From: Candidatus Pacearchaeota archaeon
GTDB taxonomy: Archaea > Nanobdellota > Nanobdellia > Pacearchaeales > UBA284
Length of the DNA stretch: 50,600 bases
Direction of reading: 5' to 3'
Assembly (NCBI GenBank): GCA_026395795.1
Contig: JAPLYB010000036.1
Coordinates: forward strand, 1 to 50,600
The notes under the pieces were generated by a model. That model made no database searches and was not told where the DNA came from. It saw only the letters and a list, made by a program, of their open reading frames with translations. The translations under genes and the position numbers were made by a program. Positions 13,844-49,730 of this stretch are shown one piece after another; the first letter of the stretch is position 1; each line of letters opens with the position of its first letter.

Positions 13844-13897
13844 CATCGCAAAAAATAGCTGATTTTTTGGGATGCCAAAAATTTTAATTTTTGAGCA
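13844..13897. repeat. 54-nt double-hairpin dispersed repeat (overlaps stop codon of 13884..14384)
   Basis: CATCGCAAAAAAT/ATTTTTTGGGATG and TGCCAAAAATT/AATTTTTG-A-GCA. Confidence 0.7.
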
Positions 13898-14384
13898 GAA
13901 CTACATTAGTCATCCCCCTTCTTCTTCTCTCAATGAGCTGTCTTCCTTCTAATCTATCCAATATTCTTGTAACCTTCACCTTATCAAATCCAGTTTTATC
14001 AACAACGTCTGACTGAAAGATTATTCCTTGAGCATCAATAATTGATTGATAGATCTTCTTTTCATCCGCATCAAGCAATTTCAAGTTATTTTCTTTATCT
14101 TTTAGCTTCTGCTCATTAATTTCAGATTTTTCTTTGATTCTTTTCACAACAATTTGTTTCTCTTCTTTGCTGAATATTAATGTTATCCCGATAACAACAA
14201 TTATGGCAATCAAAGCGAGAGAGATATAAGTCTGTATTTGTATTGTACCATACATCGGACAAGTGGTTCCGTGACTGCATGAAGTATTCACAATTGTTGT
14301 TAATGCATTGTTAAACAAAAAAACAATTGCCCCTATCAAAAGGGCTATCCCAATTATCAATAGTCCAACATGTTTATTTTTCAT
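13884..14384 (-). CDS. two-TM membrane protein with CSHGTTC loop and C-terminal winged HTH (putative metal-responsive regulator)
   Basis: TM-CxHxxxC-TM; IFQSDVVDKTGFDKVKVTRILDRLEGRQLIERRRRGMTN. Confidence 0.8.
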   Translation of the reverse strand: MKNKHVGLLIIGIALLIGAIVFLFNNALTTIVNTSCSHGTTCPMYGTIQIQTYISLALIAIIVVIGITLIFSKEEKQIVVKRIKEKSEINEQKLKDKENNLKLLDADEKKIYQSIIDAQGIIFQSDVVDKTGFDKVKVTRILDRLEGRQLIERRRRGMTNVVLLKN

Positions 14385-14854
14385 TTTTCACATTTAAATT
14401 TATCATGAAAATTCTTTTCATGTTCTTGATTTCTTTTATGTTTTTCTTCAAGTTCTTTAGGAACTTTTTTTCCTTTTTTTATCATATAATCATAAATTGC
14501 CTCAGATAAAGCTTGTTCAGCTAATAAAGAACAATGAACCTTAATAGCAGGCAACCCTCCCAATTCTCGAACAACATCTTGGTTAGTTATTTTCAAAGCA
14601 TCTTGAATTGTTTTTCCTTTAGCTAAATCAATAACAACATCTGATGTTGCAACAGCAGCAGCACATCCAAGTGTTTGGAATTTTATTTGATAAATTGTAT
14701 CTTTTCCTTTAATTTCTTTAACTTTAATAAAAACATGCATGATATCACCACAGACTAAATTGCCAACTTTTCCAACTCCATCTGGATTTTTTATTTCTCC
14801 AACATTTTTTGGTTTTAAAAAATGTTGCATAACTTTCTTATTGTACTGTTCCAT
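14381..14854 (-). CDS. iscU: Fe-S cluster scaffold IscU/NifU-N
   Basis: HF..PKNVG, CGD, GC, KVHCS. Confidence 0.93.
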   Translation of the reverse strand: MEQYNKKVMQHFLKPKNVGEIKNPDGVGKVGNLVCGDIMHVFIKVKEIKGKDTIYQIKFQTLGCAAAVATSDVVIDLAKGKTIQDALKITNQDVVRELGGLPAIKVHCSLLAEQALSEAIYDYMIKKGKKVPKELEEKHKRNQEHEKNFHDKFKCEK

Positions 14855-14975
14855 ATTTTTATTTTATTTAATTTTAAGTTAAATTATCCTAAGTTTTTGT
14901 ACACTTTGGTTTCATCTTGTGCTTAGTTCTTGAACAATTTTTAAATTTAATTTTACCCCTAACTCTATCTTGCAT

Positions 14976-15608
14976 TTAATCAAACTTTTTAACTCGCTTG
15001 ATTATATTTTTAATAGCATAGTAACCGGCTCCAAAAATGATAACTCCTGGAATCAAAGCAACTCCCAAAGCAGGTGCTAGAGCCACTACTCCAATTGTTC
15101 CCACAACTCCCGCGCCTAAAGATTCTAAGATTGATGTAATTTTAGGGATATCTTTTTCAACATTTTTCTGTAGTCCATCAATTTGCATGATTAATTTTCC
15201 GTTCTTGAATATCTTGACCTTATGCTCTTCTTCAGAACATAAGATAGAAGTATTTCCCTTCATTGAAGCAGTAAATGCAGCAGCATGTCTTGTTCCATAT
15301 CCAACAAAAGGTCTCGTTTTTTTAACCATCGCCCCATAAGCCAAAACATTTCCTTTTCTATCAATGATCACACAACCGTCCATACTAGCTATGCTTTTCA
15401 AAAGTTTATCTGCTCCTAAATCAAATAAATTAAATTTTTCAATTCTTTGCTTAACCAAAAGAGTATAATCCACCCTATCTCCAATAATAAATAAAGCCCC
15501 TTCTCCTTTTCTTGCAAGAGCAACAGATATACTCAAGATTTTCTCTTCTATCTGCTTCATCTTTTTCTTTGAAGATATTTCTGTTGTTTTAACTTTATTA
15601 TTTTTCAT
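14976..15608 (-). CDS. diadenylate cyclase (DAC/DisA_N domain) with C-terminal hydrophobic segment
   Basis: EGALFIIGD, DGC (DGA motif), GTRHAAA (RHR motif), SEE. Confidence 0.82.
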   Translation of the reverse strand: MKNNKVKTTEISSKKKMKQIEEKILSISVALARKGEGALFIIGDRVDYTLLVKQRIEKFNLFDLGADKLLKSIASMDGCVIIDRKGNVLAYGAMVKKTRPFVGYGTRHAAAFTASMKGNTSILCSEEEHKVKIFKNGKLIMQIDGLQKNVEKDIPKITSILESLGAGVVGTIGVVALAPALGVALIPGVIIFGAGYYAIKNIIKRVKKFD

Positions 15609-15631
15609 TTTTCTACAATATTATTTAACTC

Positions 15632-15683
15632 CGCAAAAAACATCAGCTTTTTGGGGCGCCAACAGAAATAGCCCTGTTGAGCG
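15632..15683. repeat. double-hairpin dispersed repeat copy forming the 3' end of the DUF1858 gene
   Basis: CGCAAAAAAC-ATCAGCT-TTTTGGGG and CGCCAACAG/CTGTTG-A-GCG. Confidence 0.6.
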
Positions 15684-15897
15684 CTTTTATCAACTCTTTA
15701 ACATCAACCCCATGCACTTGCGCACCTTCTCTTATTGTTTCTTGTTGAGCAGCAGGACATCCCATCGCACAGAACATTTCATATTTCATGAAGACCCTAT
15801 TTGTTTCAGGAAATTTGGTGATAACATCATGAAAAGTCATCTTCTCAGTTATTTTTTGGTCTTTTTCAGATTTATCCATTTTTTTCTTTGGTTTCAT
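15643..15897 (-). CDS. DUF1858 / hybrid-cluster-associated redox disulfide domain protein
   Basis: ITEKMT..DVITKFPE...F..Y.MFCAMGCPAAQQETI..GA.VHG. Confidence 0.85.
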   Translation of the reverse strand: MKPKKKMDKSEKDQKITEKMTFHDVITKFPETNRVFMKYEMFCAMGCPAAQQETIREGAQVHGVDVKELIKALNRAISVGAPKS

Positions 15898-15916
15898 TAT
15901 TACCCTTCTTTTTAGT

Positions 15917-17101
15917 TTACCAGTTTTTTTTAAATGGGCTGATCTTCCTCAATGATCCAACTACATTCTTGATCTGTTCTGCAATATAATCAATATCTTC
16001 TTCTCTATTCTCTTTCCCAAAAGTTATTCTCAAACTTCCATGGGCTTGTTCTGGTTTTAGGCCTATTGCAGTCAAAACAGGACTTGGTTCAAGACTTTTT
16101 GAAGAACAAGCAGATCCTGTAGATACTGCAATTCCTTTCTCATCCAGCCTCAAGAGCAAAGCCTCTCCTTCAACCCCTTCAAAAGAGATGTTGATATTTA
16201 CATATATTCTTTGGTCTTTTGAACCATTTATCCTTGATCCCGGGATTTTTAATAACTCCTTTACCAGTTTGTCTTTCATCTTTCCGATCCTTTCTGCTTC
16301 AGATTTCATGTTCTTGCTTGCAAGTTCTGTCGCTTTTGCAAACCCGACAATCCCAGGGATGTTTTCAGTTCCAGATCTTAACCCAGTTTCATGCCCTCCA
16401 CCATGTGTTATAGGAACAATCTTAACATCTTGATGAACATAAAGAAAACCAATCCCCTTTGGACCGTAAATCTTATGGGCGGAAGCTGATAGAAGATCGA
16501 TATTCATTTTTTTTACATTGATTGAGATCTTTCCATAGCTCTGGACAGCATCTGTATGAAAATATACTTTATGCTTAGCGCATATCTTTCCAATCTCTTC
16601 GATTGGCTGGATTGTCCCTATTTCATTATTTACGTGCATAATCGTAACAAGAATCGTTTCTTTAGTAATCGCATTTTCAACATCTCTTGGATTGATAAGG
16701 CCTTCAGAGTTAACATCTAGCCATGTTATTTTCCAACCACGTTTCTCTAGATACTTGCAAGTTTCACGGACAGCAGGATGCTCTATCTTGCTCGTAATGA
16801 TATGATTTCTCTGATTCTTTGTCCCAAAAGCAGCATTCTCTGAAAATGCAACACCCATAATTGCGAGATTATCTGCTTCAGTTCCAACACCTGTAAAAAT
16901 AATTTCAGAAGGCCTTGCCCCTATGAAATCAGCAATTTGTTTTCTTGACTTTTCTAAAGCATCCCTTGATTCTCTTCCAAAACTATGCAAACTAGAAGGA
17001 TTTCCGAATTTTTCAGAGAAGTATGGTTCCATAGCCTCAATTACTTCTTCCGCAACAGGAGTTGTTGCTGAATGATCTAAATATATCCTTTTTGAAGACA
17101 T
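15917..17101 (-). CDS. iscS: cysteine desulfurase
   Basis: YLDHSATTP, GNPSS, IEHPAV, DAVQ, SAHKIYGPKG, STGSACSS. Confidence 0.95.
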   Translation of the reverse strand: MSSKRIYLDHSATTPVAEEVIEAMEPYFSEKFGNPSSLHSFGRESRDALEKSRKQIADFIGARPSEIIFTGVGTEADNLAIMGVAFSENAAFGTKNQRNHIITSKIEHPAVRETCKYLEKRGWKITWLDVNSEGLINPRDVENAITKETILVTIMHVNNEIGTIQPIEEIGKICAKHKVYFHTDAVQSYGKISINVKKMNIDLLSASAHKIYGPKGIGFLYVHQDVKIVPITHGGGHETGLRSGTENIPGIVGFAKATELASKNMKSEAERIGKMKDKLVKELLKIPGSRINGSKDQRIYVNINISFEGVEGEALLLRLDEKGIAVSTGSACSSKSLEPSPVLTAIGLKPEQAHGSLRITFGKENREEDIDYIAEQIKNVVGSLRKISPFKKNW

Positions 17102-17103
17102 TT

Positions 17104-17556
17104 TTATTCTTTACCTAGCAATCTATTTATTCTTGAGCTTGAATTTGACTTTGGCTCACCAACATCAAAAGCCATTTCAATGCCATATTTCCTACAAGTA
17201 GCTACTTCTGGGATATTGTCGATGGTCCTATCTCCACCTTTAGCAAACACAACATGGTCTCCTTTATTTTGTTTGACTATCATTTCCAAGGTTTCACATT
17301 GACCGAGATCAGAATCAATTGAAAGGATGACCTTATCAATATATTTTATCGCCCCAACAATTTTCATTCGTTCCCGCTCATTCATGATTATCTTTCCTTT
17401 TTTTAACATTTGCTGCCGATCATTATTAACGATGACCCAAACTTCGTCTCCTATTTTTTTAGCCGCAGCCATATAGTCTATATGCCCTCCATGCAAGGGG
17501 TTGAAATAACCAGAGATAACGATTATTCTTTTCGGTTGAGAATTTTGATATGCCAT
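17104..17556 (-). CDS. cytidylyltransferase-family nucleotidyltransferase (TagD/RibL/RfaE-like)
   Basis: SGYFNPLHGGH (HxGH), FAKGGDR, SSS. Confidence 0.85.
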   Translation of the reverse strand: MAYQNSQPKRIIVISGYFNPLHGGHIDYMAAAKKIGDEVWVIVNNDRQQMLKKGKIIMNERERMKIVGAIKYIDKVILSIDSDLGQCETLEMIVKQNKGDHVVFAKGGDRTIDNIPEVATCRKYGIEMAFDVGEPKSNSSSRINRLLGKE

Positions 17557-17594
17557 TTTCAGTTTATGTTTAATTTATCAAGCTTTTATTATAT

Positions 17595-18188
17595 TTAATT
17601 TTTTAGATATTTTGGAATTTTAAAATGATCGTATTCTTTTATCATATTCTTTCCATAAAATATTCTGGAAAAACATTCTGCAGTAAGTTTTGCATCTTCA
17701 AGAGCATTATGAAAGTTTCTTTCATCTTTCATCCCGCAAAATTTTATGATTTCTCTAAAACCGGCACTGTGGCCTTTTTTAACTAAAATCTTGCCGCTTA
17801 TTTTTAAGATTCTTGCCTGAGCGATAGAATGCAAATCAAAAGCCCTATAATGAAAAGGAAATTTCAGATTATATTTTCTAGCCTTCGTCTCTAAAAATGC
17901 GACATCAAACTGGGGGTTTTCACACATATAATTTTTTATTTTGCTTTTCTCACACCATTTAAAGAATTGTTTAAGCAGTTGTTTTTGGCTCCTTTTATTT
18001 TTTTCTCTGATCTCTTTTTCTGTTTTACCTGTAACCGTCATTGCTTCCCTGCTCACTTTGTCTTTGTTATCAATATGACCTTCTTCTAAGAAAATTCTCT
18101 TGGGATTTTCAAAATCAACAGCCCCTATCTGCCATATTCCAGAGTTTACAAGATCCGTCCCACTTGTTTCAAGGTCAATTACAATCAT
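17595..18188 (-). CDS. DEDDh 3'-5' exonuclease (DnaQ-like)
   Basis: DLETSG, N..FD, HNALEDA. Confidence 0.88.
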   Translation of the reverse strand: MIVIDLETSGTDLVNSGIWQIGAVDFENPKRIFLEEGHIDNKDKVSREAMTVTGKTEKEIREKNKRSQKQLLKQFFKWCEKSKIKNYMCENPQFDVAFLETKARKYNLKFPFHYRAFDLHSIAQARILKISGKILVKKGHSAGFREIIKFCGMKDERNFHNALEDAKLTAECFSRIFYGKNMIKEYDHFKIPKYLKN

Positions 18189-18562
18189 CTTGCTATCTCC
18201 TGTTCTGGTTTAGCAGAACATAAATGTAATACCCCTTTATTATACTTTTTGCATATATCACAGGAAACTCCCTGTCTCTTCGCAACTTCGATAAGTTTCA
18301 TCATTTCTCCAATAACTTTTTTATTATCTTTGAGGATTATTTCAGCAGATTGTTCAACATATTTTACCATCTCTTCAGAAAATTTAATGTCCTTTGCTCT
18401 TTTTCTATGCATATATTGGCTAATGGCTGCTTCCGTAGTCCCCAAGAGTTCAGCGACTTTATTCTGTTTAATTTTATACTTTTTAATAAAAGATTTGGCA
18501 AGTTCCCTTCTAATAGCTGGGATGATATACCAAACTTCTATTTCTTGGGGTAACGAATACAT
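18185..18562 (-). CDS. HTH transcriptional regulator (COG2522-like)
   Basis: PQEIEVWYIIPAIRRELA...Q..VAELLGTTEAAISQY...KRA; CxxC. Confidence 0.82.
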   Translation of the reverse strand: MYSLPQEIEVWYIIPAIRRELAKSFIKKYKIKQNKVAELLGTTEAAISQYMHRKRAKDIKFSEEMVKYVEQSAEIILKDNKKVIGEMMKLIEVAKRQGVSCDICKKYNKGVLHLCSAKPEQEIAR

Positions 18563-18698
18563 TATTTCTTAACTATCGTGAAGTTTTTAAATCTTTCCGT
18601 TTGTATGTAATTAACTCAAATAAAAAAATAAAAAAGAACAAGTTTTTCAAATTAAGATTAATATTCCACGTCTCTCTCTTTTTTTAGAGCAAAACAAA

Positions 18699-19514
18699 TT
18701 AAATTTTAATCTTGGACAAAGGAATCATCTTTTCCCAACTTGAGTTAAAGATCTCATGCATTGCGTTTCCAAAGAATGGACTATTAATCCATACACCAAC
18801 ATCATAGTTTGGATGTACTTCTTCATCATCTAGTACCATTAGTAACAGCTCTTTTGCGTCAGAGATTGCAAATCTGGATTTCACTTTTCCATTTCTAACC
18901 TCTGCGTATTTACTCAATTCTTTTGCTATTTTATAATTCTTTGGAGTTATCGGCGCAACAACCCGGACCATCACTCCTTTTTTCTTTGCTTTTTCAAAAG
19001 CCGGTCTCAAATTTTCAAATTTTCTGTTTAATCCTTCAGATGTTGTAGCTATTGTTATTGATTTGTCTGCATTTCTGATCATCATATCAAGATGATTATA
19101 CAGATTAGTTCTTCCTCGTATAGCACCAGACAAATCTGTTGGTTCAATATATTTTATTCCAGTCGTGAATAGAGTAGACAACTCATTTAAAACATCTGTT
19201 CCTTTCAATTCATCAAGTCTCTTTGACATATCGTCAGCTTCCTTTACCACATTTCTCTTGACTCTCTCAACAACTTCTGTCGGTTTAAGAGCAACAAACT
19301 TTATCGGTTTTCCAAGTTTCATTATAACAAATCCTTTTTTCTCCAAACTCTCAAGGATATCATAAGTCCTGGATCTTGGAACACCAGAAATGTCACTTAA
19401 TTCTCCAGCAGTCGAAACTCCTCTAGAAAGCAAAGCAGTCCATACTCGAACCTCATACAAATTCAAACCAAAAATTTTTCTCAATCTGCTCAAAAATTCT
19501 TCTTTAACAATCAT
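18699..19514 (-). CDS. TrmB-family regulator / chromatin protein (TrmBL2-like)
   Basis: GLNLYEVRVWTALL...SGVPRSRTYDILESLEKKGFV; C-terminal EBD-like domain. Confidence 0.9.
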   Translation of the reverse strand: MIVKEEFLSRLRKIFGLNLYEVRVWTALLSRGVSTAGELSDISGVPRSRTYDILESLEKKGFVIMKLGKPIKFVALKPTEVVERVKRNVVKEADDMSKRLDELKGTDVLNELSTLFTTGIKYIEPTDLSGAIRGRTNLYNHLDMMIRNADKSITIATTSEGLNRKFENLRPAFEKAKKKGVMVRVVAPITPKNYKIAKELSKYAEVRNGKVKSRFAISDAKELLLMVLDDEEVHPNYDVGVWINSPFFGNAMHEIFNSSWEKMIPLSKIKI

Positions 19515-19626
19515 TTTTTATGCTTTTAACTTCTTTTATAACTTCTGTATAGTAAAGCTATTGTTTTTAGTTTAAAGTAGTATTTAAATCTTTCTTTGAT
19601 AAAATGAGATTTAATCGAATAAAAAT

Positions 19627-22449: not shown

Positions 22450-22450
22450 T

Positions 22451-23372: not shown

Positions 23373-24093
23373 GTCAAGAACCACTGGTCACCGCTCGCCC
23401 TTGAAAATTGATTTGGGCTCGCTATAGACCAGTGGCATGATTAAATAATTGCTTAGAAGTTAATTGCTGGAGATTTCTGACAGCCAATATAATCGCTTAC
23501 ATGTTCTTCATCACTTCCAATGTTGTCGAGGAGATAAGCAGGATTCCAAAAACCACTTCCATAAAAATATTTTTTCTTGATTTCTGTAAATGCTCGCAAT
23601 ATTTTTCTGCCAGTTATTCCTCTCAAAATTTTAGCCGCTTCTGGTTTGCTTCTCAAACCAATGTCCACATTAAAATGTAAATGGTTTGAATCAAAACCAA
23701 CCTTTTTTATTGGCAGATGATAGTTCTCAGAAATTTCTTTGAACAAAACAGTAAGGAAGAACCTTACTTTTGCATCATCGAATATTTGATGACAATATTT
23801 AATTTTAAACATTGCGTGGCACCATGAATTTCCCACGCACGAACTTTTTCTATTTAATTGTCGAAACATTTTTTTCTCCAGAGCTCTCGCTAAGCGAAAG
23901 CAAATATTTATTTAGTTGAGAAAGCTCTAGCTAATACAATCGTTCTGTGAGCTAGAGTCAAGCTCACATTTCTTAATGCTTCTAGAAATAAATATCTTCT
24001 TAAAAAAAGAGGATTGATTTATCAAAATGAAATAAGTCCCTTGCTGGGCACTAAGAAGCACCACCAGTCCGAGACTGGTGGAAATCTCGCATT
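23373..24093 (-). mobile_element. IS200-type (tnpA-only) IS200/IS605-family element; left boundary approximate
   Basis: left-end hairpin CCACCAGTC/GACTGGTGG 24061-24081; right-end hairpin CCACTGGTC/GACCAGTGG 23381-23435 followed by TTCTTGAC on the minus strand; no tnpB. Confidence 0.75.
23453..23869 (-). CDS. tnpA: Y1 HUH transposase
   Basis: KYC...F, NHLHF (HUH), GFWNPAY, DYIGCQ (catalytic Y..Q). Confidence 0.9.
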   Translation of the reverse strand: MFRQLNRKSSCVGNSWCHAMFKIKYCHQIFDDAKVRFFLTVLFKEISENYHLPIKKVGFDSNHLHFNVDIGLRSKPEAAKILRGITGRKILRAFTEIKKKYFYGSGFWNPAYLLDNIGSDEEHVSDYIGCQKSPAINF

Positions 24094-24172: not shown

Positions 24173-24325
24173 TTACCAGTCTTCATCACCTAAATCATCA
24201 CTTGTTTCGTCTTCGTCATCCATATCGTCATCTGAATCCTCATCTTTATCAGATTTATCTTCCTCAACCTTATCGCTCTTATCTTTCTCTCCTAATTCCT
24301 TTTCCTCTTGTTTTTTTGTTTTCAT
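24173..24325 (-). CDS. 50-aa highly acidic microprotein
   Basis: manual translation MKTKKQEEKELGEKDKSDKVEEDKSDKDEDSDDDMDDEDETSDDLGDEDW; GGAGG SD; upstream TATA ~24418. Confidence 0.65.
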   Translation of the reverse strand: MKTKKQEEKELGEKDKSDKVEEDKSDKDEDSDDDMDDEDETSDDLGDEDW

Positions 24326-24378
24326 GCTAAAAAATCCTCCTAATTTTTGGCACGCTGAAAATAATTTATTTTCAAGCG
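24325..24378. repeat. 54-nt double-hairpin dispersed repeat carrying the SD of the acidic microprotein
   Basis: TGCTAAAAAAT-CCTCCT-AATTTTTGGCA and CGCTGAAAATAA/TTATTTTCA-A-GCG. Confidence 0.72.
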
Positions 24379-24489: not shown

Positions 24490-24606
24490 TTAGATAGCTG
24501 CCATTCTTTTTTGTTTTCTCTTTCTCTTCTCCCTCTTGATTCTTTTTCTTTGCCATTTCCATCTCATCTGTCCTTTCTTTTTCCATCTACGAGATGATCT
24601 TTTCAT
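24490..24606 (-). CDS. rpl41e: ribosomal protein eL41 (eS32)
   Basis: manual translation MKRSSRRWKKKGQMRWKWQRKRIKREKRKRKQKRMAAI; contains the MRWKW.RKR..R.KRKR core; GGAGG SD. Confidence 0.85.
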   Translation of the reverse strand: MKRSSRRWKKKGQMRWKWQRKRIKREKRKRKQKRMAAI

Positions 24607-24659
24607 TTCAGCAAAAACCTCCGGTTTTTGTTGTGCCAAAAATTATTAATTTTTGGGCA
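24606..24659. repeat. 54-nt double-hairpin dispersed repeat carrying the SD of rpl41e
   Basis: CAGCAAAAACC-TCC-GGTTTTTGTTG and TGCCAAAAATT/AATTTTTG-G-GCA. Confidence 0.72.
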
Positions 24660-24944: not shown

Positions 24945-24957
24945 TTTGATTATTTGT

Positions 24958-39285: not shown

Positions 39286-39344
39286 TGATAAAAACCATTT
39301 TAGAGGGTTTTTAGCATGCAGAAAAAATGAATGTTTTTCTAGCA
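39286..39344. repeat. double-hairpin dispersed repeat copy upstream of thyX
   Basis: TGATAAAAACC/GGTTTTTAGCA and TGCAGAAAAA/TTTTTCT-A-GCA. Confidence 0.6.
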
Positions 39345-42787: not shown

Positions 42788-42847
42788 ATCTCCCAAATTC
42801 TTCCTGTTCAGCAAGTTTTTTAATCTATCTTTTATTGTTTACTTTAT

Positions 42848-42875: not shown

Positions 42876-42914
42876 TAATAGAAAGATTTAAATACTTCAT
42901 AGTGTTTTTATTAG

Positions 42915-43595: not shown

Positions 43596-43602
43596 TAATT
43601 GT

Positions 43603-43718
43603 GCCGCGATCGCGTAATGGTATCGCAAAGGCCTGGAATAAGAATCAATGTTCTTAACAATTCCTATCCACAAAGCCTTGCCCGCAAGGGCATCGGGGTT
43701 CGATTCCCTGTCGCGGCG
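43603..43718 (+). tRNA. tRNA-Ser(GGA) with 35-nt intron at 37/38 (43639-43673)
   Basis: GCCGCGA/TCGCGGC acceptor, AAGGC-CT-GGA-A^A-GCCTT, long variable arm GCCC-GCAA-GGGC, GGTTCGATTCC, G73; relaxed BHB. Confidence 0.9.
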
Positions 43719-43755
43719 TAAGATATTTTTATAAATCCCCAATAAATAATTATTT

Positions 43756-44037
43756 ATGGCAAACAAAGCAAAAGCGAGTCACATTCTTGTGAAAACAGAA
43801 GAGCAGGCAAAAGATATCTTAGCAAAAGTTCAAAGAGGAGAATCATTCTCTAAACTTGCCCAAGAATATTCTGTCTGTCCTTCAAAGAAAAAGGGCGGAA
43901 GTTTGGGAGAGTTTGGAAGAGGACAAATGGTTAAGGAATTTGAACATGCTGTTTTCAATGCAAAAAAAGGCGACGTAGTTCTAGTAAAAACACAATTTGG
44001 CTGGCACGTTATAAAAGTAGAAGATATTTGGGGCTAG
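43756..44037 (+). CDS. ppiC: parvulin-type peptidyl-prolyl isomerase
   Basis: ASHILVK, F..LA.EYS.CPS...GG.LG.F.RGQMV.EFE, TQFGWHVI. Confidence 0.95.
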   Translation: MANKAKASHILVKTEEQAKDILAKVQRGESFSKLAQEYSVCPSKKKGGSLGEFGRGQMVKEFEHAVFNAKKGDVVLVKTQFGWHVIKVEDIWG

Positions 44038-44149
44038 AGATAACAAGAAGGATTAATGCGGTTATATTCATTATTAATAATACCCGAAGTCAATTTCAAA
44101 AACAACGTCACTTAATAGAACTAAATCCCTTTTATATTAATTATCAAAC

Positions 44150-44803
44150 TCATATAACATCGCCAATCCAAGCAACAGAAGAATCAAGACCTATTCCAGG
44201 ACAAGCAGTATTAACCCAACTTTTAATTTCAGGCCAGTTTTCCATCTGCTCTTCTTGAAATTCATCAAATAAGAATACATAGACTTTTTTATTTTTTTTC
44301 TCTGATTTTTCCTTAAATTTTAACGCTTGATCAAGATGTAACTGTCCCCATTTTGTTGAGACTAACAGGCCGATATGATCGGCACTCAAGAATCTAACTT
44401 TAAAGGCTTTCTTTCTCATCTTAAATTTTTCTACCTCATTCCAAGAGATTTCTGAAAACTCTTCTGTTAAAGGGTTATAAGTAAATATTTTTTTTTGCTC
44501 TGTTAAAGACAAGGCCATTTGGATAAGATGAAATTTTCCAGATCCAATATAAAGAAATGCTTGAACTTTAGACTCAACAGCAAGTGCTGACGCAGCATTG
44601 CATCCCAAAATCATTCCGGTCCCATTTAAAAAAACATTTTTCCCGGTTTTCTCTAGTTTTTTCTTGATTTCTTTTAAAAAATCAGAAAACTGAATCGTAG
44701 AAATAAGCCCTACCTTTTCAGGAAGCTTCTCAAAGTTTTTAAGAAGAGCTGTAGGAACAGAGTAATCGGTCTTGTAACCTGCTTTTATTAAGAGTTGTTT
44801 CAT
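44150..44803 (-). CDS. dph2: diphthamide synthesis protein Dph2 (short form)
   Basis: STIQF, ILGC, GSG.FH, STK.GQ, NTACP. Confidence 0.85.
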   Translation of the reverse strand: MKQLLIKAGYKTDYSVPTALLKNFEKLPEKVGLISTIQFSDFLKEIKKKLEKTGKNVFLNGTGMILGCNAASALAVESKVQAFLYIGSGKFHLIQMALSLTEQKKIFTYNPLTEEFSEISWNEVEKFKMRKKAFKVRFLSADHIGLLVSTKWGQLHLDQALKFKEKSEKKNKKVYVFLFDEFQEEQMENWPEIKSWVNTACPGIGLDSSVAWIGDVI

Positions 44804-44826
44804 CGAAACTTTAGCTATAAGCTAAT

Positions 44827-45210
44827 TTACATCATCTGCTCTGTCTTTGGTGCTTGTGGTGGTACGCTTCCGCCTCTGAATATATCAACGAACGGTGGCG
44901 TAACAATAATAACATTTTCACCAAAACCAGCTATGTTTCCTTCAAGCGCATCTACTGTCTTTTTAAGCTTTGATATAGATCTCTTCAATTCGATAACATC
45001 TTTGCTTTTCAAAGACTTAATATCAATCAAAGCGATTGTATTCCCTTCTCTTAGTATCTCAAGAATTCTTCCAACGTCCTCGAATGTCCTAAGAACAAAT
45101 GGTCTCAATACTACCTTTGACTTTTTGGGTGTATCTCTGCCTATATCAACTTCGATGTAGTCTAAACTCTCTTCTCCTTTTCCGCCGAACAATTTATTGA
45201 AAAATGCCAT
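44827..45210 (-). CDS. sepF: cell division protein SepF (archaeal DUF552)
   Basis: LR.FED...IL..LREG.TI..IDI..LK.....ELKR.I.KLK......G.IAG.....IIVTP. Confidence 0.88.
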   Translation of the reverse strand: MAFFNKLFGGKGEESLDYIEVDIGRDTPKKSKVVLRPFVLRTFEDVGRILEILREGNTIALIDIKSLKSKDVIELKRSISKLKKTVDALEGNIAGFGENVIIVTPPFVDIFRGGSVPPQAPKTEQMM

Positions 45211-45274
45211 TTTAATTTAACAAGTAAATAAGACAATCATCGCTTTATAAATTTTTTGCTGATATTTTATATAT

Positions 45275-45352
45275 GTCAAGAACCATATACTCGGGTGTAT
45301 AGTTCTTGAACATCCCAAAAATTCTATATTTTTCAGGATATTCAAGAGGGGG
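45275..45352 (-). repeat. orphan IS200-like right end / palindromic element
   Basis: GTCAAGAACCA identical to 23373-23383; hairpin followed by TTCTTGAC on the minus strand; second bulged hairpin ATCCCAAAAAT/ATTTTTCAGGAT. Confidence 0.5.
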
Positions 45353-45411
45353 CTATTACAACAAAACAGGATAAATCACATTGATTTAATAGTTAAAAAA
45401 AGAATTTCACA

Positions 45412-45732
45412 TTATTTTACGTCTTTCAAGACCTCTTCTCGAACCCTGCTAAACTTCTTATTCATTTCATCTTCTTGTTTTTCAATTGATTTAATCCTCA
45501 ATTCTAGAAGTTGTTTTTTTCTTTCAAGATCTTTTTGTAAGGTACTCTTGTCAGATTTGAACATTAGATTTCCAACAATTTTGAAAACATCTCCTTTCGC
45601 ATCTTTAAGACTTTCCAAAGCACTAATTGTTTCAGAAAGCTCTATTTGAAAAAGTTGTTTTTGCAAAGTCAAGTTCTGAGAAGCTTGTTCCATTATTTGT
45701 AAGTCTTCGATACTGTTTTTTGATTTTTCCAT
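45412..45732 (-). CDS. pfdB: prefoldin beta subunit
   Basis: QKQ....EL.E...AL..L......VFKIVGNLM....K......L......LELRIK.IEKQE. Confidence 0.9.
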   Translation of the reverse strand: MEKSKNSIEDLQIMEQASQNLTLQKQLFQIELSETISALESLKDAKGDVFKIVGNLMFKSDKSTLQKDLERKKQLLELRIKSIEKQEDEMNKKFSRVREEVLKDVK

Positions 45733-45778
45733 TTTTTATTGATTCATTCGTCATCTAGCTCTTATCCATTAAAGATAA

Positions 45779-45916
45779 TTAAATTGCTTTTATTTTTTTA
45801 ACCGCAGTTCTTGGTTTAAAGAAAACTTTCATTCCACAATTGGGACAAGAGAATCTACTTCTTAAAGACTTTTCATTTACTTGTTTACCGCAAAAAAAAC
45901 ATTTGTATTCTGCCAT
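45779..45916 (-). CDS. rpoP: RNA polymerase subunit P (Rpo12), 45 aa
   Basis: manual translation MAEYKCFFCGKQVNEKSLRSRFSCPNCGMKVFFKPRTAVKKIKAI; conserved position between rpl37ae and pfdB. Confidence 0.92.
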   Translation of the reverse strand: MAEYKCFFCGKQVNEKSLRSRFSCPNCGMKVFFKPRTAVKKIKAI

Positions 45917-45970
45917 GCTAGAAAAAACCTCCGTTGTTTTTTCGGCATGCTGAAAATTTTATTTTTATCA
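45916..45970. repeat. double-hairpin dispersed repeat copy carrying the SD of rpoP (second hairpin degenerate)
   Basis: TGCTAGAAAAAAC-CTCCGTT-GTTTTTTCGGCA then TGCTGAAAATT... Confidence 0.62.
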
Positions 45971-45983
45971 TTTTAATCCATAA

Positions 45984-46250
45984 TTATTTAGATTTTCTAG
46001 TTTTTAAATTTTGTTCAACTTCAATTGATTTTTCAAGAGCATATGCTCCACCAGTGAATCTTTTTCCACATGATTTTGATTTGCATTGCCATAATCCTTT
46101 AGCAATTCTTTTTGCAGCAAGTTTCTTACAGAAAGGACATCTCTGTCTCTCTTTTCTTTTTTTCTCCACTTCAAGCCATTTTTCCTTTACAGTACTTCCG
46201 TATCTTACTCCAAATCTCCCTGATGCTCCAACTTTCTTTGTCTTTCCCAT
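45984..46250 (-). CDS. rpl37ae: 50S ribosomal protein eL43 (L37Ae)
   Basis: GRFGVRYG, CPFC, KRIAKGLWQC..C...FTGGAY. Confidence 0.96.
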   Translation of the reverse strand: MGKTKKVGASGRFGVRYGSTVKEKWLEVEKKRKERQRCPFCKKLAAKRIAKGLWQCKSKSCGKRFTGGAYALEKSIEVEQNLKTRKSK

Positions 46251-46309
46251 TGTACTATGTTTATTTTTATGAAATTCGGTTTTTAAAACTATCTAACCGA
46301 TAGGTAATA

Positions 46310-46383
46310 TGGGACTGCTGGGATTTGAACCCAGATCACGGGTGCCCAAGACCCGAATACTAACCAAGTTATAATACAATCCC
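46310..46383 (-). tRNA. tRNA-Pro(TGG)
   Basis: minus strand GGGATTG...CGGGT-CT-TGG-GC-ACCCG...GGTTCAAATCC...CAGTCCCA. Confidence 0.9.
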
Positions 46384-46433
46384 TTGAGAAAATGATGTTT
46401 GAATGATTTATAAAAGTTGTCAAGAGAAGAACT

Positions 46434-47132
46434 TTACTTTTTCTTTTTCTCTTCTTTAGCAAGCGCAGCTTTAACTGGTGCTGATCCAGCTGCAGGCGCT
46501 GCGGTGCCTGCTACTGCAGGTGCTGTTCCAGTAGCTGCTTCACTTGCTTTTGCTTCTTTCTTAGCTTCAATTTCTTTCAAATAAGCTTCTTGAGCCTTCT
46601 TTATTTTTTCAAAGTCTTTATTTAACTGAGCTATTTTTTCAGGAGATGCTTGTTCAGCTCCTTTTGAGATTAGATCATTATGCTTCCCTTCTTTAACTTC
46701 TTGAATAACTTCAACAGGATTTTTTCCCTCAACTAGTAATCCTAAAGACATACAAGTTCCAAGAACAGAATCAACAGCTTCATTCATTCCATTAACCATC
46801 ATATCTTTTTCCTTTATTTTTGCAACCTTAATCACAATCTCAAGAGGAATGTTACCCATTTTAATTTTATTGGGTTGAGGAGATCCTTTTTCAATTCCAA
46901 CTTCTCTTTTCAAAAGTTCAGATGTTGGGGGTGTGAAAACTTGAACAGTGAATTCTTTTGTTTTTGTATTAATATCAAGAACAGCAGGAACCTTGATTCC
47001 CTTAAATCCCGCAGTTGCCTTATTGACATCTGCAATAATCTTGCCCATATTCATTCCTAATGGTCCAATCTTCTGGCTTAGAGCAGGACCTGGCTTCATT
47101 GCCCCGCCATCAACAAGTAATTTAATCTGCAT
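46434..47132 (-). CDS. rpl11: 50S ribosomal protein uL11 with long C-terminal extension
   Basis: LVDGG...PGP.L...IGPLG.N, T..FKG.KVP, PPTSELL, GTC.SLG. Confidence 0.95.
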   Translation of the reverse strand: MQIKLLVDGGAMKPGPALSQKIGPLGMNMGKIIADVNKATAGFKGIKVPAVLDINTKTKEFTVQVFTPPTSELLKREVGIEKGSPQPNKIKMGNIPLEIVIKVAKIKEKDMMVNGMNEAVDSVLGTCMSLGLLVEGKNPVEVIQEVKEGKHNDLISKGAEQASPEKIAQLNKDFEKIKKAQEAYLKEIEAKKEAKASEAATGTAPAVAGTAAPAAGSAPVKAALAKEEKKKK

Positions 47133-47149
47133 TTTTATTAGTCTCCTTA

Positions 47150-47407
47150 TTACTTTACTTCAACTGAGTCATTCAAAGATTGTCCAGGCAGCCCCTTCTC
47201 AAAGGCGACTCTGACAAGCCCTTTACTTCCATGACTGGATGTAATCTTTCCATTAATAACCTTGCCTGCAGGGCTCTTCCAAGAAACTTCCTTTCCAAAC
47301 AAAGCCTTGGCATCTTTAATAGTTTTTACACCATCGACTTCGATAATCATATGTCTAATATGAATTTTTGTCTTTCCTCTCCTAAAGCTCATTATTTTTC
47401 CCTTCAT
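47150..47407 (-). CDS. rpl35ae: 50S ribosomal protein eL33 (L35Ae)
   Basis: SFRRG, GKI...HG..G.VRV.FEKGLPGQ. Confidence 0.95.
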   Translation of the reverse strand: MKGKIMSFRRGKTKIHIRHMIIEVDGVKTIKDAKALFGKEVSWKSPAGKVINGKITSSHGSKGLVRVAFEKGLPGQSLNDSVEVK

Positions 47408-47493
47408 TTTATTTTCAAGATTTTTATTTTAGCATTATGATAATTTCACAAAGAAGGGGTGTTTTTAAAAGTTTTGCCTAAAGACATAGGGGC

Positions 47494-49362
47494 TTAGCTA
47501 AGAATAATTTCAAACTCTCCGATAACTTTTTTCACGTTTTCCAGCAATTTTCCATCAAGTCTCTTTTCAACAATAGCGTCTTTTTTCAAATGCTCTGTCA
47601 ATTCTTCCTTATTGGAATCAGTAATTTTTCCTTGAACAATTTTTTTGATTGTATCTTGAGTTATGTCTGGGATTAAAAAAGCTGCCTCTTTAAAGATAAA
47701 CAATTCTGCTCTTTTAACAACCATCTTTTCTTTAACTTTTGATTGATAAATAAAATAAATTTTCTTTTTTTCTGTTTCAAGAATTTCTTTTCTCTGAAGG
47801 TACTCTGTCAAATATCCAGTTAACTCAAATGAAGCTTTTTTCATAGAAGCAACTTCTTGTTTTGTTATATTCTCTTTTTTATGTTTTCTATTAATTTCAA
47901 TAATCTCTTGTAATAAAGCAACAACTTTGTGCGGAACGAGTCCTTTTTCAACAATATCTTTAGTCAATTTATTACATGCATTCGTTTCAGTACATTTTCC
48001 GATTACTTTTTCTAGCAAAACAAAAACAGAGCTATAAACTTCTGCAACTTCTTTCTTTGCCATCTTTTGTTCAACCTGTTTCATTAACTCCTTCAATCTT
48101 TTTATGTATTCTGTTGAATCAGCAAGCATCTCATCTATTTCCTTTCCAGAAGTAATCACTTTTGGATCGTGTTCATATTTCTTATAAGCCTTAACAATCC
48201 TTTCAAGCATATCAGCATATTTTGGTTCTAAGAGTTTTTCTTTATCAACAAAAACTCTTCTAAATTCTCCCTCTTGAATCTCTTTGGGAGTTGGGGGCGC
48301 CATCCCATATAACATTAGAACAGCTTGACTGGGGGTAACAACTCCCCAAAAAATATCTTGAGCAAGAATTTCGTTTAGTCTCATTCTTACATTCTCTGCA
48401 ACTTTCTCTCCAAGAGACATAAACATATCGATTGCTTCAGGACTTGGTTTGATCTTTCCCATTCTTAGAAGCAATTTCCAAGGCATGAATGCTCCACGAT
48501 CGTATAATGGGACCCCATCTCTAATAAACGTGAAGATAACAGGATGGGCATCTTTAACAGACTCCCAGAATTCTGTCAGAATATAAATTTGGGGGCTTAA
48601 CTTGTTCTTAACGCCCGCAAGTTCTTCAGCCTCCATTATATAACTCCAGATGATCGATCTCAACTTTTCTTTTAATTCAAATCGAGACATTCGTTTAACA
48701 TCTGTATCATCAATTACAACAAAAATGTCTATATCACTTGTTTCAATTGCTTTTCCCCTAACAAGACTTCCAGCGACTACATAGCTTACAACATATTTTT
48801 CAAATTTTCTCAAAACAAGATTTTTATGAATTGTTGTAACCCTTAGCGCACCCAACATCCCCCTATCATGCAACGGGAAAGACATGGCGATTGATTCAAT
48901 TAATGCGTACTTCCCATCAAAACACATTTCCCAAATTTCCGCAGCACTTTTGACATGCAACCAGACTCTTGGCTTAAGATCTTTAATAATTTTAATCGCT
49001 TCCATTTTGATCTTCGGAATCTCTTTGAATTTATCATCTGGAACAATCATCATTAGATGCACAAGCTTTTCATCTTGCTTATCTTTTTGTACTTCTTCCT
49101 CTTCTTCAATTAATTGTGTTGCTTGAGGAGGCAGAATCCCAATGGCTTCGATGTAAGGAAATTTTTTCACAACAACTTTCTTGAATTCTTTAAGTTTCTC
49201 CCTTAATTTATCAATTTCTTTTTTGACATCTTCTGGAATTTCTTTAGAAATATCTTTTAACTTATTATAAGTGTCCTGGTCACTATCTTGTTGAACATCC
49301 AACTCATCCTTTGAATCTTTCTTTTTGGATTTATCGTCTGCTACCATCTCGTAAAAAAGCAA
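47494..49362 (-). CDS. large nucleotidyltransferase (Pol-beta/MNT domains plus HEPN-like helical region)
   Basis: AGSLVRG.....SDIDIFVVIDD; IRDGVPLYD; upstream degenerate NTase-like repeat; real start may be 49347. Confidence 0.78.
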   Translation of the reverse strand: MLFYEMVADDKSKKKDSKDELDVQQDSDQDTYNKLKDISKEIPEDVKKEIDKLREKLKEFKKVVVKKFPYIEAIGILPPQATQLIEEEEEVQKDKQDEKLVHLMMIVPDDKFKEIPKIKMEAIKIIKDLKPRVWLHVKSAAEIWEMCFDGKYALIESIAMSFPLHDRGMLGALRVTTIHKNLVLRKFEKYVVSYVVAGSLVRGKAIETSDIDIFVVIDDTDVKRMSRFELKEKLRSIIWSYIMEAEELAGVKNKLSPQIYILTEFWESVKDAHPVIFTFIRDGVPLYDRGAFMPWKLLLRMGKIKPSPEAIDMFMSLGEKVAENVRMRLNEILAQDIFWGVVTPSQAVLMLYGMAPPTPKEIQEGEFRRVFVDKEKLLEPKYADMLERIVKAYKKYEHDPKVITSGKEIDEMLADSTEYIKRLKELMKQVEQKMAKKEVAEVYSSVFVLLEKVIGKCTETNACNKLTKDIVEKGLVPHKVVALLQEIIEINRKHKKENITKQEVASMKKASFELTGYLTEYLQRKEILETEKKKIYFIYQSKVKEKMVVKRAELFIFKEAAFLIPDITQDTIKKIVQGKITDSNKEELTEHLKKDAIVEKRLDGKLLENVKKVIGEFEIILS

Positions 49363-49485
49363 GAAACCTTTTTAAAGTTTCCTAAGACAAAACTTTGAAG
49401 AAGTTTCTGTATGGAAAATAGTTATTTCCTAAAGAACTACTCCCATTCTAAACTTTTTTAAATCCAACAAATGTATCATTTCTAT

Positions 49486-49589
49486 GGGCCCATAGTCCAG
49501 TGGTTAAGTTCTAAAGAATACTTTAGATTCCCATAAATGACGACTCCCTTACACGGAGTAGATCGCTGGTTCGATCCCAGCTGGGCCCA
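49486..49589 (+). tRNA. tRNA-Val(TAC) with 31-nt D-loop intron (49506-49536)
   Basis: GGGCCCA/TGGGCCC, ACTCC-CT-TAC-AC-GGAGT; removing the intron restores GTCCAGTGGTTATGAC; BHB helix GTGG/CCAT with 3-nt bulges. Confidence 0.9.
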
Positions 49590-49630
49590 TTTATTCTCAT
49601 AAAATTAAATTTTATCAAAAATTAAATTTC

Positions 49631-49730
49631 GCTGGGATCGAACCCTGGTTCTGCTCAGAAATGAGAACATTTCTGGCACGCCAAAAATTTCATAATTTTT
49701 GAGCGGATCCCAGCTGGGCCCATTTTTCTC
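49631..49730. repeat. inverted copy of the tRNA-Val T arm (49631-49644) plus direct copy of the tRNA-Val 3' end interrupted by a 54-nt insertion
   Basis: GCTGGGATCGAACC is the reverse complement of 49568-49581; CTGGTTC (49645-49651) + GATCCCAGCTGGGCCCATTT (from 49706) rebuilds the tRNA 3' end. Confidence 0.85.
49652..49705. mobile_element. 54-nt double-hairpin element inserted without target-site duplication
   Basis: TGCTCAGAAATG/CATTTCTGGCA + CGCCAAAAATT/AATTTTTGAGCG sits exactly between C and G of TTC^GA in a tRNA duplicate. Confidence 0.75.

Follow-up and report, generated by a model that had tools for sequence, protein, structure and literature searches.

REP, BIME and REPIN elements of bacteria are short imperfect palindromes, present in about a hundred copies per genome, which are mostly extragenic and lineage-restricted, form inverted doublets and longer mosaics, keep their structure by compensatory change and show no target duplication. 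The ends of IS200/IS605 insertion sequences and their miniature derivatives (PATEs) carry two imperfect hairpins in subterminal position, lack inverted terminal repeats and target duplication, and act as single strands; HUH Y1 enzymes act on imperfect hairpins without target duplication. Rickettsia palindromic elements (RPEs) lie in frame in conserved protein genes, where they are translated as an extra peptide, and also occur in RNA genes. Archaeal and bacterial elements that integrate into tRNA genes leave the tRNA's 3′ end duplicated as the att site. The in-frame fusion of RPEs is described in PMC10969869, which portrays archaeal (Sulfolobus SM1–SM4) and bacterial (Correia, ERIC) MITEs as non-autonomous, mostly intergenic elements in tens to hundreds of copies.

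Here, we describe a ~54-base two-hairpin DNA repeat, with seven copies in the 50,600-nucleotide stretch of DNA, from a Woesearchaeota-like archaeon of DPANN type, that was analysed (the window) and about a hundred genome-wide (~109 family loci in 957 kb). It works like REP/BIME or RPE elements, sharing the properties named above with the former and the in-frame, translated position with the latter. Two imperfect hairpins without target duplication recall IS200/IS605 ends and PATEs, the mostly intergenic and apparently non-autonomous copies recall MITEs, and a second T-arm-to-3′-end copy downstream of an intact tRNA recalls tRNA-gene integration. Yet the family has no single-copy, flanked RAYT and no GTAG/CGTC head, its doublet arms are two separate hairpins and not paired together, it shows no population of near-identical copies, and copies also lie inside genes and a structural RNA. 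The host, moreover, is an archaeon, whereas the 2018 survey, where it treats Archaea, has typical IS200 transposases (subclass 1.1) only and gives the REP-associated Y1 classes as bacterial (PMC6006769). An earlier sequence-only reading, which saw a REP-like family in a DPANN archaeon, is supported as to a dispersed, structure-conserving, mobile REP/REPIN-like repeat, but its proposed spread by an IS200-type TnpA is not, and the family fails the tests of membership in the REP-RAYT group. Compared with RPEs, the element is 54 nt long, with two confirmed in-frame cases among 109 loci and most copies in spacers. The hairpins of IS200/IS605 point the same way along one strand and correspond to the resident IS, whereas those described here are mirror images, alike on both strands and unlike the genome's own IS hairpins. 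MITEs have parent-IS terminal inverted repeats and target duplications, neither of which was seen, and the element is far smaller. Unlike in tRNA-gene integration, the two tRNA-end copies are separated by only 6–41 nt, the second one always has an inverted T-arm piece in front of it, and the sole 'insert' is the 54-nt element in the T-loop, with no integrase or element body between the copies.

We regard the repeat as probably, though by no means certainly, a small non-autonomous mobile DNA element. A covariance model (R1), built from 15 doublets, two of them window copies (24325 and 49652) and the remaining 13 taken from other contigs, matches all seven copies that the sequence-only reading had listed as a dispersed double-hairpin family, together with its partial copy, and the family is real:

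3623–3645, unstranded: half element, a single family hairpin (R1 E 0.022, model positions 31–53; fold z −4.5)
13847–13897, unstranded: double-hairpin element between cupredoxin-like and MarR-like genes (R1 E 4.5e-8; fold z −4.5; Pfam of neighbours)
15630–15683, unstranded: double-hairpin element, divergent copy with second stem CAACAG (R1 E 4.9e-5; fold z −3.7)
24325–24378, unstranded: double-hairpin element (R1 E 2.6e-13)
24609–24659, unstranded: double-hairpin element (R1 E 2.6e-7)
39286–39344, unstranded: double-hairpin element in the divergent spacer upstream of thyX (R1 E 5.7e-7; Pfam)
45916–45970, unstranded: double-hairpin element, second hairpin decayed (R1 E 4.3e-5)
49652–49705, unstranded: double-hairpin element in the second copy of a tRNA 3′ end, within its T-loop (R1 E 1.8e-14)

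The unit is a hairpin of ~26 nt. It has a clamp of 3 bp (in most cases YGC/GCR), a single-base bulge, a stem of 8 bp with the pattern N-R-A-A-A-A-N-N and an AAAA/TTTT core, and a loop of 3–5 nt. A unit joined to an inverted one forms a doublet of 52–56 nt (modal length 54 nt, in 28 of 84 loci), with GCRYGC at its centre and the bulges on the outside; this doublet is the transposed form. Under a strict descriptor 37 doublets have F-R polarity and none R-F. In the first hairpin the bulge is mirrored, lying on the 5′ side and in most cases a T, and the doublet is therefore two-fold symmetric and scores on both strands. Every hairpin has a T-run on both strands. Stem sequence had been said to change completely between copies, which is incorrect: three central A:T pairs are kept in 144–146 of 147 rows, and what varies is the clamp and, in the stem, the outer two and inner two positions.

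Folded as single-stranded DNA, all seven window copies form two abutting hairpins (z −2.2 to −7.1 against shuffles). Pairing figures from the seed alignment are circular, because the source scan demanded pairing; in 150 rows fitted to the covariance model (84 loci, often both strands), 95.2% of cells pair against 76.8% in shuffles, with double changes at 21 of 22 pairs. On the sense strand of 58 co-directional loci, mismatches are G.T in 19 cases and A.C in 25, and the Watson-Crick share of pairs is 93%; conservation is therefore at the DNA rather than the sense-RNA level. Median nearest-neighbour identity among the genome's copies is 0.80. Four pairs reach at least 0.93, and at least two of these have identical flanks and are therefore duplicated segments; nothing among the genome's diverse copies points to a recent burst or to a master copy. 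Pairing of 93–95% at such divergence suggests that structure is also maintained in place, hinting at a host-level role.

The excess over shuffled DNA is large: with nhmmer the real genome gives 109 merged loci, whereas dinucleotide shuffling of whole contigs leaves 0, 1, 1, 0 and 0 and shuffling in 150-nt blocks leaves none in any of five runs. That the repeats are AT-rich palindromes arisen by chance, or an artefact of assembly, therefore deserves virtually no credence, even in a genome of only 33% G+C where a loose single-hairpin descriptor gives 577 matches against about 300 in shuffled sequence. The family recurs in dozens of independent assemblies, and contigs from other runs bridge one copy, that at 39286–39344, which is also present in a ~97%-identical strain of run X2 whose contig spans 38930–39545. 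The shuffles and the occurrence in relatives and sampled genomes refute this reading. Within the genome, 23.6% of element bases fall inside ORF calls, compared with 86.9% of the genome, and the copies are thus mostly extragenic, with 11 loci in divergent and 10 in convergent spacers.

Evidence for movement comes from four kinds of comparison, all between metagenome bins. A spacer holds a 53-nt element in G005, where G002 reads ...GATTTTGCAA up to the junction and CGTTGTG... beyond it, and the same spacer is without the element in G000, G003 and G004. A Prismane/HCP gene (PF03063, E 1e-106) contains an in-frame element of 54 nt, or 18 codons (C39 13039–13092), which is absent from all three orthologues found in congeners and aligns as a 19-column gap. 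Additionally, an RsmB/F methyltransferase has 17 extra codons (C6 18584–18631), absent in five of five congeners, and the block downstream of the window's tRNA is missing at both orthologous loci (L126 and L127). Filled and empty sites, which the earlier reading had named as a check, thus exist in a spacer and in two genes. Insertion is precise and without visible target duplication, although the AT-rich flanks of the empty sites could hide one of 1–2 nt. Targets include spacers, protein genes in frame, RNase P RNA, and positions beside or within copied tRNA ends. The element turns over between species of one genus; across 14 kb of synteny, none of four elements in G000 coincides in position with those in the corresponding stretches of G001 (L112, L113).

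The copied tRNA ends are exemplified in the window:

49486–49589, plus strand: intact tRNA gene whose D region holds an insert of 33 nt and whose 3′ end recurs downstream as a duplicate (Rfam tRNA, 53.9 bits)
49631–49644, plus strand: inverted copy of the T-loop and 3′ T-stem (GCTGGGATCGAACC)
49645–49651, plus strand: to the left of the element, the 5′ T-stem and TTC copied in direct orientation (CTGGTTC)
49706–49722, plus strand: direct copy of what remains of the T-loop, of the 3′ T-stem, of the 3′ strand of the acceptor and of the discriminator, with a T-run after it

Neither duplicate nor element follows the orthologous tRNA in L126 and L127. In two genera, 11 tRNA genes (seven in G000 and four among ten fetched G017 loci) have their own T-arm and 3′ end copied downstream, inverted and direct, with the element in the T-loop; no such duplicate was found at 15 tRNA genes without a nearby element. 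The outer edge is the mature tRNA 3′ end (discriminator) in all 11, CCA is lacking, and the inverted piece copies an uninterrupted T-loop. One case is the mirror image: here it is the 5′ end of a tRNA that is duplicated, starting from +1, and the element lies in the D region. Elements also adjoin tRNA 5′ ends at C31, C15 and C44 in G000 and at L175 in G001, and at C31 and C15 arrays of 6–8 hairpins fill the entire stretch from a TATA-like box to the tRNA 5′ end. Removing the element in silico restores a tRNA at none of 109 loci.

A structure-specific enzyme supplied in trans would recognise the element when it is folded as a single strand or extruded as a hairpin, through clamp, bulge and A/T core rather than through full sequence, and this would be why pairing is kept while the stem ends vary. 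At tRNA genes the element may enter the T-loop or D-loop; our guess is that only events with local fold-back (inverted plus direct) duplication, leaving an intact tRNA copy, survive selection. No intermediate of fold-back duplication was seen at the tRNA loci.

The family is patchy, occurring in 23 of 41 relatives, labelled Candidatus Woesearchaeota or Pacearchaeota, and in about a third of the high-quality genomes sampled from the class (51 of 150; 41 of 119 genera). G001 has 143 matches, the closed genome G049 (1.3 Mb, 100% complete) at least 16, and the congener G002 is nearly devoid of elements. Spread by the TnpA at 23453, as proposed by the sequence-only reading, can be judged against the IS that encodes it:

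23381–24081, minus strand: IS200-type insertion sequence, outside the family, with tnpA at 23453–23869 (PF01797 E 6.5e-16; NF033573)

The HLH and DY..Q motifs are readable in the translation, the gene looks intact, and on its sequence it is a bona fide Y1 transposase. A REP/RAYT-type system in which this enzyme or its two paralogues mobilise the elements would accord with the action of Y1 enzymes on imperfect hairpins and with their co-occurrence, which is positive but loose: among 150 genomes, element and Y1 gene are both present in 20, the element alone in 31, the gene alone in 18 and neither in 81 (odds ratio about 2.9, uncorrected for kinship or genome size), and a Y1 gene occurs in 6 of 12 element-rich relatives against 3 of 29 others. 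However, 31 of 51 element-bearing genomes have no PF01797 (Y1_Tnp) match, including G049 and G001. The IS is bounded by its own GC-rich hairpins at 23381–23435 and 24061–24081 (inverted repeats I7 and I9; CCACTGGTC/GACCAGTGG and CCACCAGTC/GACTGGTGG), and these bear no relation to the family. All three tnpA genes of the genome belong to divergent IS copies, and no element flanks any of them; the nearest elements lie 456 and 740 nt from the start of the window's tnpA, beyond a small ORF. The case for this TnpA is therefore weak, and we consider mobilisation by such an enzyme decidedly unlikely; the Y1 HUH transposase remains the textbook candidate, yet is not required for element presence. No enzyme was found tied to the family, RVT_1 being missing in 35 of the 51.

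A host-functional structured signal, evolving largely in place rather than by transposition, is also unlikely, though with some real chance of being right; it could act as a bidirectional terminator or insulator, block exonucleases in leaders and trailers, or serve as a module for processing or assembling stable RNAs. Pairing persists though copies differ by ~20% from their nearest relative, hairpin arrays precede tRNAs, elements adjoin tRNA 5′ ends and start codons, and the T-runs would serve both strands. Copies within RNase P RNA (G000, G003, G021 and G006) sit in its specificity domain, which docks tRNA T- and D-loops, and show compensatory differences, and element-poor genomes have their few copies at RNase P RNA or in the rRNA operon spacer. 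However, 6 of 12 RNase P RNA genes examined, including that of congener G005, have no element, the family was not found in 99 of the 150 genomes, and congeners do not share positions; the insertions in two enzymes, the lack of a G.U excess on the sense strand and the use of divergent as well as convergent spacers also speak against such a signal. Spread through RNA, in which a double-hairpin RNA module would become attached to a stable RNA (at the T- or D-loop or the 5′ end of a tRNA, or to RNase P RNA) and go back into DNA by reverse transcription and recombination with the parent gene, we think very improbable. It would fit duplicates that end at the mature 3′ end or begin at +1, the RNase P cut site that elements adjoin, the copies in the specificity domain, the three RVT_1 genes of G000 and the inverted pieces, since snap-back synthesis typically yields fold-back inverted pieces. 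Against it, reverse transcriptase shows no association (16, 35, 24 and 75 genomes in the same order; odds ratio 1.4), G049 has elements without RVT_1, and ~90% of copies are far from stable-RNA genes; the missing CCA, the failure of removal to restore a tRNA and the uninterrupted T-loop, unexpected from simple snap-back on an element-bearing template, count against it too.

Three window copies abut small minus-strand ORFs. Read on the minus strand, the element at 24325–24378, which has AGGAGG in a hairpin loop, supplies with its last A the first base of the ATG of an acidic ORF of 50 aa (24173–24325); a very basic ORF of 38 aa (24490–24606) has its ATG 2 nt from the element at 24609–24659, which has GGAGG in a loop. 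The first base of the element at 45916–45970 supplies the A of the start codon (ATG) of a zinc-ribbon ORF of 45 aa (45779–45916), and the alignment of an X3 contig ends exactly at 45916. A weak extra R1 match lies at 45274–45338 (E 0.057).

The ~54-nt double hairpins of the window (33% G+C) belong to a family of small palindromic mobile repeats, and the mobilising activity of this family is tied to none of the Y1, RVT_1 or prim-pol-like candidates that we examined. At every coordinate of the sequence-only reading, two abutting hairpins are present on the plus strand. In the genome bin G000 (957 kb, 44 contigs, with the window as contig C23), a descriptor scan brought up about twenty doublets of a single clear type, of which 15 were aligned (A2) as the seed of the covariance model R1. 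On both strands of G000, R1 gave 268 matches at E<=1, including all seven copies and the half copy at 3623-3645 that had been proposed for the window, as well as a weak extra copy at 45274-45338. The suspected enrichment was confirmed with a sequence-only profile (E<=0.01), which yielded 109 merged loci in 957 kb versus 0-1 per shuffle in ten dinucleotide-preserving genome shuffles. Clustering of these loci beyond chance was not found: 35/109 lie no more than 300 nt from another locus, compared with a null mean of 29 and a null maximum of 44, and the spacing is no tighter than long spacers predict.

The basic unit, a ~26-nt hairpin, consists of a 3-bp clamp (mostly YGC/GCR, with CC/GG, AC/GT and others also present), one bulged base, an 8-bp stem and a loop of 3-5 nt, frequently AGAA or AGGA in one orientation. 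Units usually occur as doublets in which hairpin 1 has its bulge on the 5' side (usually T) and hairpin 2 on the 3' side (usually A); with a strict descriptor, 37 doublets were F-R and 0 were R-F. Since the second unit is inverted, the shape of the doublet is identical whichever strand is read, and R1 scores both. Some sites hold arrays of 3-8 hairpins, while the modal element length is 54 nt (28/84 loci). Elements end in YGC...GCR and are preferentially flanked by A at -1 (104/150 rows) and T at +1 (98/150).

In an alignment of 150 rows fitted to R1, which includes both strands of many loci, double changes were observed in 21/22 pairs, in line with the proposed covariation. In the clamp of the model-aligned rows, covariation links the first Y to the middle R (UA 95, CG 47) and the middle Y to the last R (UA 99, CG 46), and a fold with an outer helix between 5' YGCT and 3' AGCR was therefore rejected; pairing of the flanks with each other, as in a general outer stem, is at chance level only. 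Stems had been described as changing completely in sequence while remaining paired. The pairing part of this description stands (95.2% of cells versus 76.8% after shuffling), whereas the complete change does not, as the central A:T stem pairs are nearly invariant (144-146/147 rows). Pairing statistics from the seed alignment are circular, because the seeds were picked for pairing.

Copies within G000 are diverse, with a median nearest-neighbour identity of 0.80 and a mean pairwise identity of 0.63. Four pairs reach an identity of >=0.93, and at least two of these are duplicated segments, as their flanks are identical. This diversity speaks against a purely selfish picture with fast turnover and, as the diverse copies still pair, the structure is likely maintained in place to some extent. 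Among sense-strand pairs of 58 co-directional loci, 93% are Watson-Crick and G.T mismatches (19) are not more numerous than A.C mismatches (25), which argues against selection on one transcript strand; the pattern is as expected of a palindrome that has to fold on each of the two DNA strands.

Comparison with congeners and other relatives revealed filled and empty sites: G005 carries a 53-nt element exactly where the spacer of G002 reads straight through, and the same spacer lacks an element in G000, G003 and G004 and holds an array plus extra DNA in G001. Additionally, the hybrid-cluster/Prismane gene of G000 (PF03063, E 1e-106) carries an in-frame element of 54 nt (18 codons); the orthologues found in congeners, 3/3 of which are without the insert, show a gap of 19 columns at this stretch of the alignment. 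An RsmB/F-type methyltransferase (C6 18584-18631) has 17 extra codons made up by an element, and these are absent in 5/5 congeners. In two related Woesearchaeota bins, the orthologous locus is without the block 3' of the window tRNA, and over 14 kb of synteny 0 of the four element positions of G000 coincide with those of G001 (L112, L113). At three simple filled/empty sites no target duplication is visible, with AT-rich or diverged flanks that would allow one of 1-2 nt. Among metagenome contigs (Logan), one from run X2 spans the copy at 39286, and one from run X3 aligns at 45351-45916 and diverges exactly where the element begins, continuing with 240 letters that do not resemble the window, so that a related strain is structurally different there; an empty site at 39286 or 45916 was not seen in these short contigs. 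Close strains occur in freshwater sediment and lake runs. One pattern scan for a viral source returned 15 contigs, just one of them with a partial element, at the contig end.

The family is also present in relatives. In a phylum sample, R1 matched 51/150 high-quality genomes at E<=1e-6, spanning 41/119 genera that are all listed as one class. In a sample of the order, matches at E<=1e-3 were present in 23/41 genomes, with loads ranging from 0 to over 140 matches and the congener G002 nearly empty; counts per genome are lower bounds, because only 37-150 candidates were scored in each. Relatives fetched by name carry the labels Candidatus Woesearchaeota or Pacearchaeota.

Only 23.6% of element bases fall in called ORFs versus 86.9% for the genome, and the spacers holding loci are co-directional (64), divergent (11) or convergent (10). 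The ORF caller was crude (first ATG, >=70 aa), which makes both the start distances and the figure of 19 loci inside ORFs approximate. At 8 loci the called start codon overlaps the last base (A) of the element. In the window, an element end base serves as the first base of the ATG in two ORFs, one acidic (50 aa) and one with a zinc ribbon (45 aa), the start of a 38-aa basic ORF lies 2 nt from an element, and GGAGG-type element loops sit 5' of these starts.

Elements lie within 150 nt of 8/35 predicted tRNA genes, and the footprint at tRNA ends is highly stereotyped, with the same 3'-end layout in seven cases in G000 and in four of ten fetched loci of G017, from another genus. An intact tRNA gene is followed by a 6-41 nt spacer and then by 10-14 nt that repeat the tRNA's own T-loop and 3' T-stem in inverted orientation. 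Next come the 5' T-stem with the first bases of the T-loop, in direct orientation, and the element. The T-loop is then completed and leads into the 3' T-stem, acceptor 3' strand and discriminator, in most cases with a T-run behind them. One tRNA-Pro has a mirror-image layout upstream as well, with the element in the D region. Such a duplicate was found at 0/15 tRNA genes without a nearby element. In-silico removal of the element, with offsets of +/-3 nt, restored a tRNA at 0/109 loci, and the duplicated ends are thus fragments and not interrupted genes. Elements or arrays also adjoin tRNA 5' ends (contigs C31, C15 and C44 in G000; locus L175 in G001). We infer that the layout is the surviving outcome of insertion into T- or D-loops, in which fold-back duplication would rescue the event by preserving an intact tRNA gene; an origin at the RNA level would be a bolder alternative. 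The window tRNA at 49486-49589 has a 33-nt D-arm insert with its own A/T hairpin (TCTAAAG...CTTTAGA), and the orthologous tRNAs in L126 and L127 measure 72 nt and are without it. A second window tRNA (43603-43718) is called by Rfam and missed by ARAGORN, and its called length of 116 nt implies a long non-canonical insert.

The RNase P RNA of G000 (C22 14558-15042) measures 485 nt versus a 288-position model and contains two elements, in the P12 region and just after GAUGAAACG. One internal element is present in the RNase P RNA of G003, G021 and G006, an element lies at the 3' end in G025 and an array upstream in G141. The RNase P RNA copy could be regarded as an ancient master, an idea weakened by the 6/12 examined genes, that of the congener G005 among them, that neither carry nor adjoin an element. 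In G022, one element is located in the 16S-tRNA-23S spacer. RNase P RNA lengths (G000 C22, L117, L119, L181-L184 versus L177-L180) are 379-485 nt in the family of the window (f1), compared with 292-338 nt in four further families within the class. The surplus is located around P12 and is only partly explained by elements.

As for enzymes, the sequence-only reading had proposed the TnpA at 23453 as driver. Profile matches identify the ORF at 23453-23869 as an IS200-type Y1 transposase, which lies between its own GC-rich hairpins, CCACTGGTC/GACCAGTGG and CCACCAGTC/GACTGGTGG, unlike the A/T-core hairpins of the family. None of the three divergent IS200-type tnpA genes in G000 is flanked by elements (0/3), and the proposed role is not upheld; the difference in end hairpins also led us to reject an IS200/IS605-derived miniature. 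Across 150 genomes, co-occurrence of element and tnpA was positive but loose (element+/Tnp+ 20, +/- 31, -/+ 18, -/- 81; kinship and genome size ignored). A PF01797 match is absent in 31/51 element-bearing genomes, and the closed 1.3-Mb genome G049 has at least 16 element matches without a Y1 gene or RVT_1. A reverse transcriptase was rejected as partner, since RVT_1 showed no association with the element in the 150 genomes (16/35/24/75). A prim-pol-like ORF of 271 aa (G000 C35 24642-25457; L069:4842-5657) lies between two elements, at 26 nt on its upstream side and 27 nt on its downstream side, and is placed near LigD prim-pol and small-primase clusters by a language-model atlas, with no sequence match in Pfam, NCBIfam or PDB; it occurs in 15/41 relatives, unrelated to element load, and was likewise rejected. 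The only shared part of the three tnpA loci is a ~130-bp upstream stretch (74-75% identity; window 23867-23998, C3 ~14577-14703, C43 ~1960-2085), which might represent a leader RNA or a conserved end of the IS. G000 also has three RVT_1 genes (C31 31618-32247, C25 1907-2515, C39 17200-17808), which may be diversity-generating retroelements, a type of element common in DPANN archaea.

The behaviour of the family most closely resembles that of bacterial REP/BIME/REPIN sequences and, for its in-frame insertions, to Rickettsia palindromic elements. The proposed REP-like character holds as far as the elements are abundant, short, imperfect palindromes, mainly extragenic and usually in inverted doublets, clusters or arrays. 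It fails where REP/REPIN-RAYT systems have a single-copy Y1 (RAYT) that is flanked by and co-inherited with the repeats. REPINs, moreover, form a population of many (near-)identical copies around a master sequence, whereas the median nearest-neighbour identity here indicates no such population. According to one study, REP palindromes adjoin a conserved GTAG or CGTC head (PMC3733652), and no such head accompanies the YGC...GCR ends with A at -1 and T at +1. Rickettsia palindromic elements insert in frame in genes (PMC10969869); insertion in conserved ORFs (here HCP/Prismane and RsmB/F) is shared in behaviour only, as sequence, size and host differ.

A DDE-type MITE would carry the terminal inverted repeats of a parent IS and a target-site duplication; both are absent here, flank repeats occur at tRNA loci only and flank pairing is at chance, and this origin was rejected. 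An archaeal BHB (tRNA-type) intron would have a bulge-helix-bulge at the exon-intron joints and restore a functional RNA on removal, and was rejected given chance-level flank pairing, 1-nt bulges and the 0/109 removals that gave a tRNA. An integron attC site would be one long imperfect hairpin with extrahelical bases and conserved R''/R' cores (RYYYAAC/GTTRRRY), in cassette arrays beside intI; two separate hairpins, no such cores and unclustered loci speak against this candidate. In the abstracts and passages of the literature consulted, we found no description of this family, of archaeal REP/RAYT systems or of the tRNA-end architecture.

A speculative and rather improbable reading would make the element the substrate of an undescribed, structure-directed insertion system of Woesearchaeota-type archaea that attacks folded loops and edges and leaves tRNA scars through fold-back repair. 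Its targets would be the T- and D-loops of tRNAs, their +1 edge and helices in RNase P RNA, and failed or half-finished insertions would be repaired by fold-back synthesis, producing the 11 scars in two genera that read intact tRNA, inverted T-arm, T-arm with element and 3' end. The boldest version would have the module shuttle as RNA between RNase P RNA and tRNA substrates.

REP-like "selfish hairpins" and their long coexistence with hosts have been studied almost only in bacteria. A comparably abundant and structurally defined family is now available from ultra-small archaeal genomes of about 1 Mb, in which each base is thought to be under pressure, and it spans dozens of genera while a transposase partner cannot be recognised. 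Through these elements, enzymes receive extra peptides, RNase P RNA grows longer, long leaders form in front of tRNAs, and start codons and loops of Shine-Dalgarno type are provided, which makes the family a source of structural novelty. The tRNA ends, duplicated and inverted time and again, are a concrete trace against which ideas on the chemistry of insertion can be tested. With R1 ready, the family is simple to annotate. Elements are also a likely source of broken contigs and wrongly called ORFs in DPANN bins. Translated in one frame, the element gives a recurring peptide, ...KMDNFRGA(E/K)K... (G000 C6 18584-18631, C3 ~3880, C39 ~10400). Its presence in several called ORFs indicates that, in these bins, ORF calls are probably inflated or lengthened by reading through elements. 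Further, several elements lie within a few hundred bases of contig ends (C19 225-281, C27 159-214, C40 307-358, C21 675-736; also G010 C4 28-80 and G017 C21 98-148), so the repeats may add to assembly breaks.
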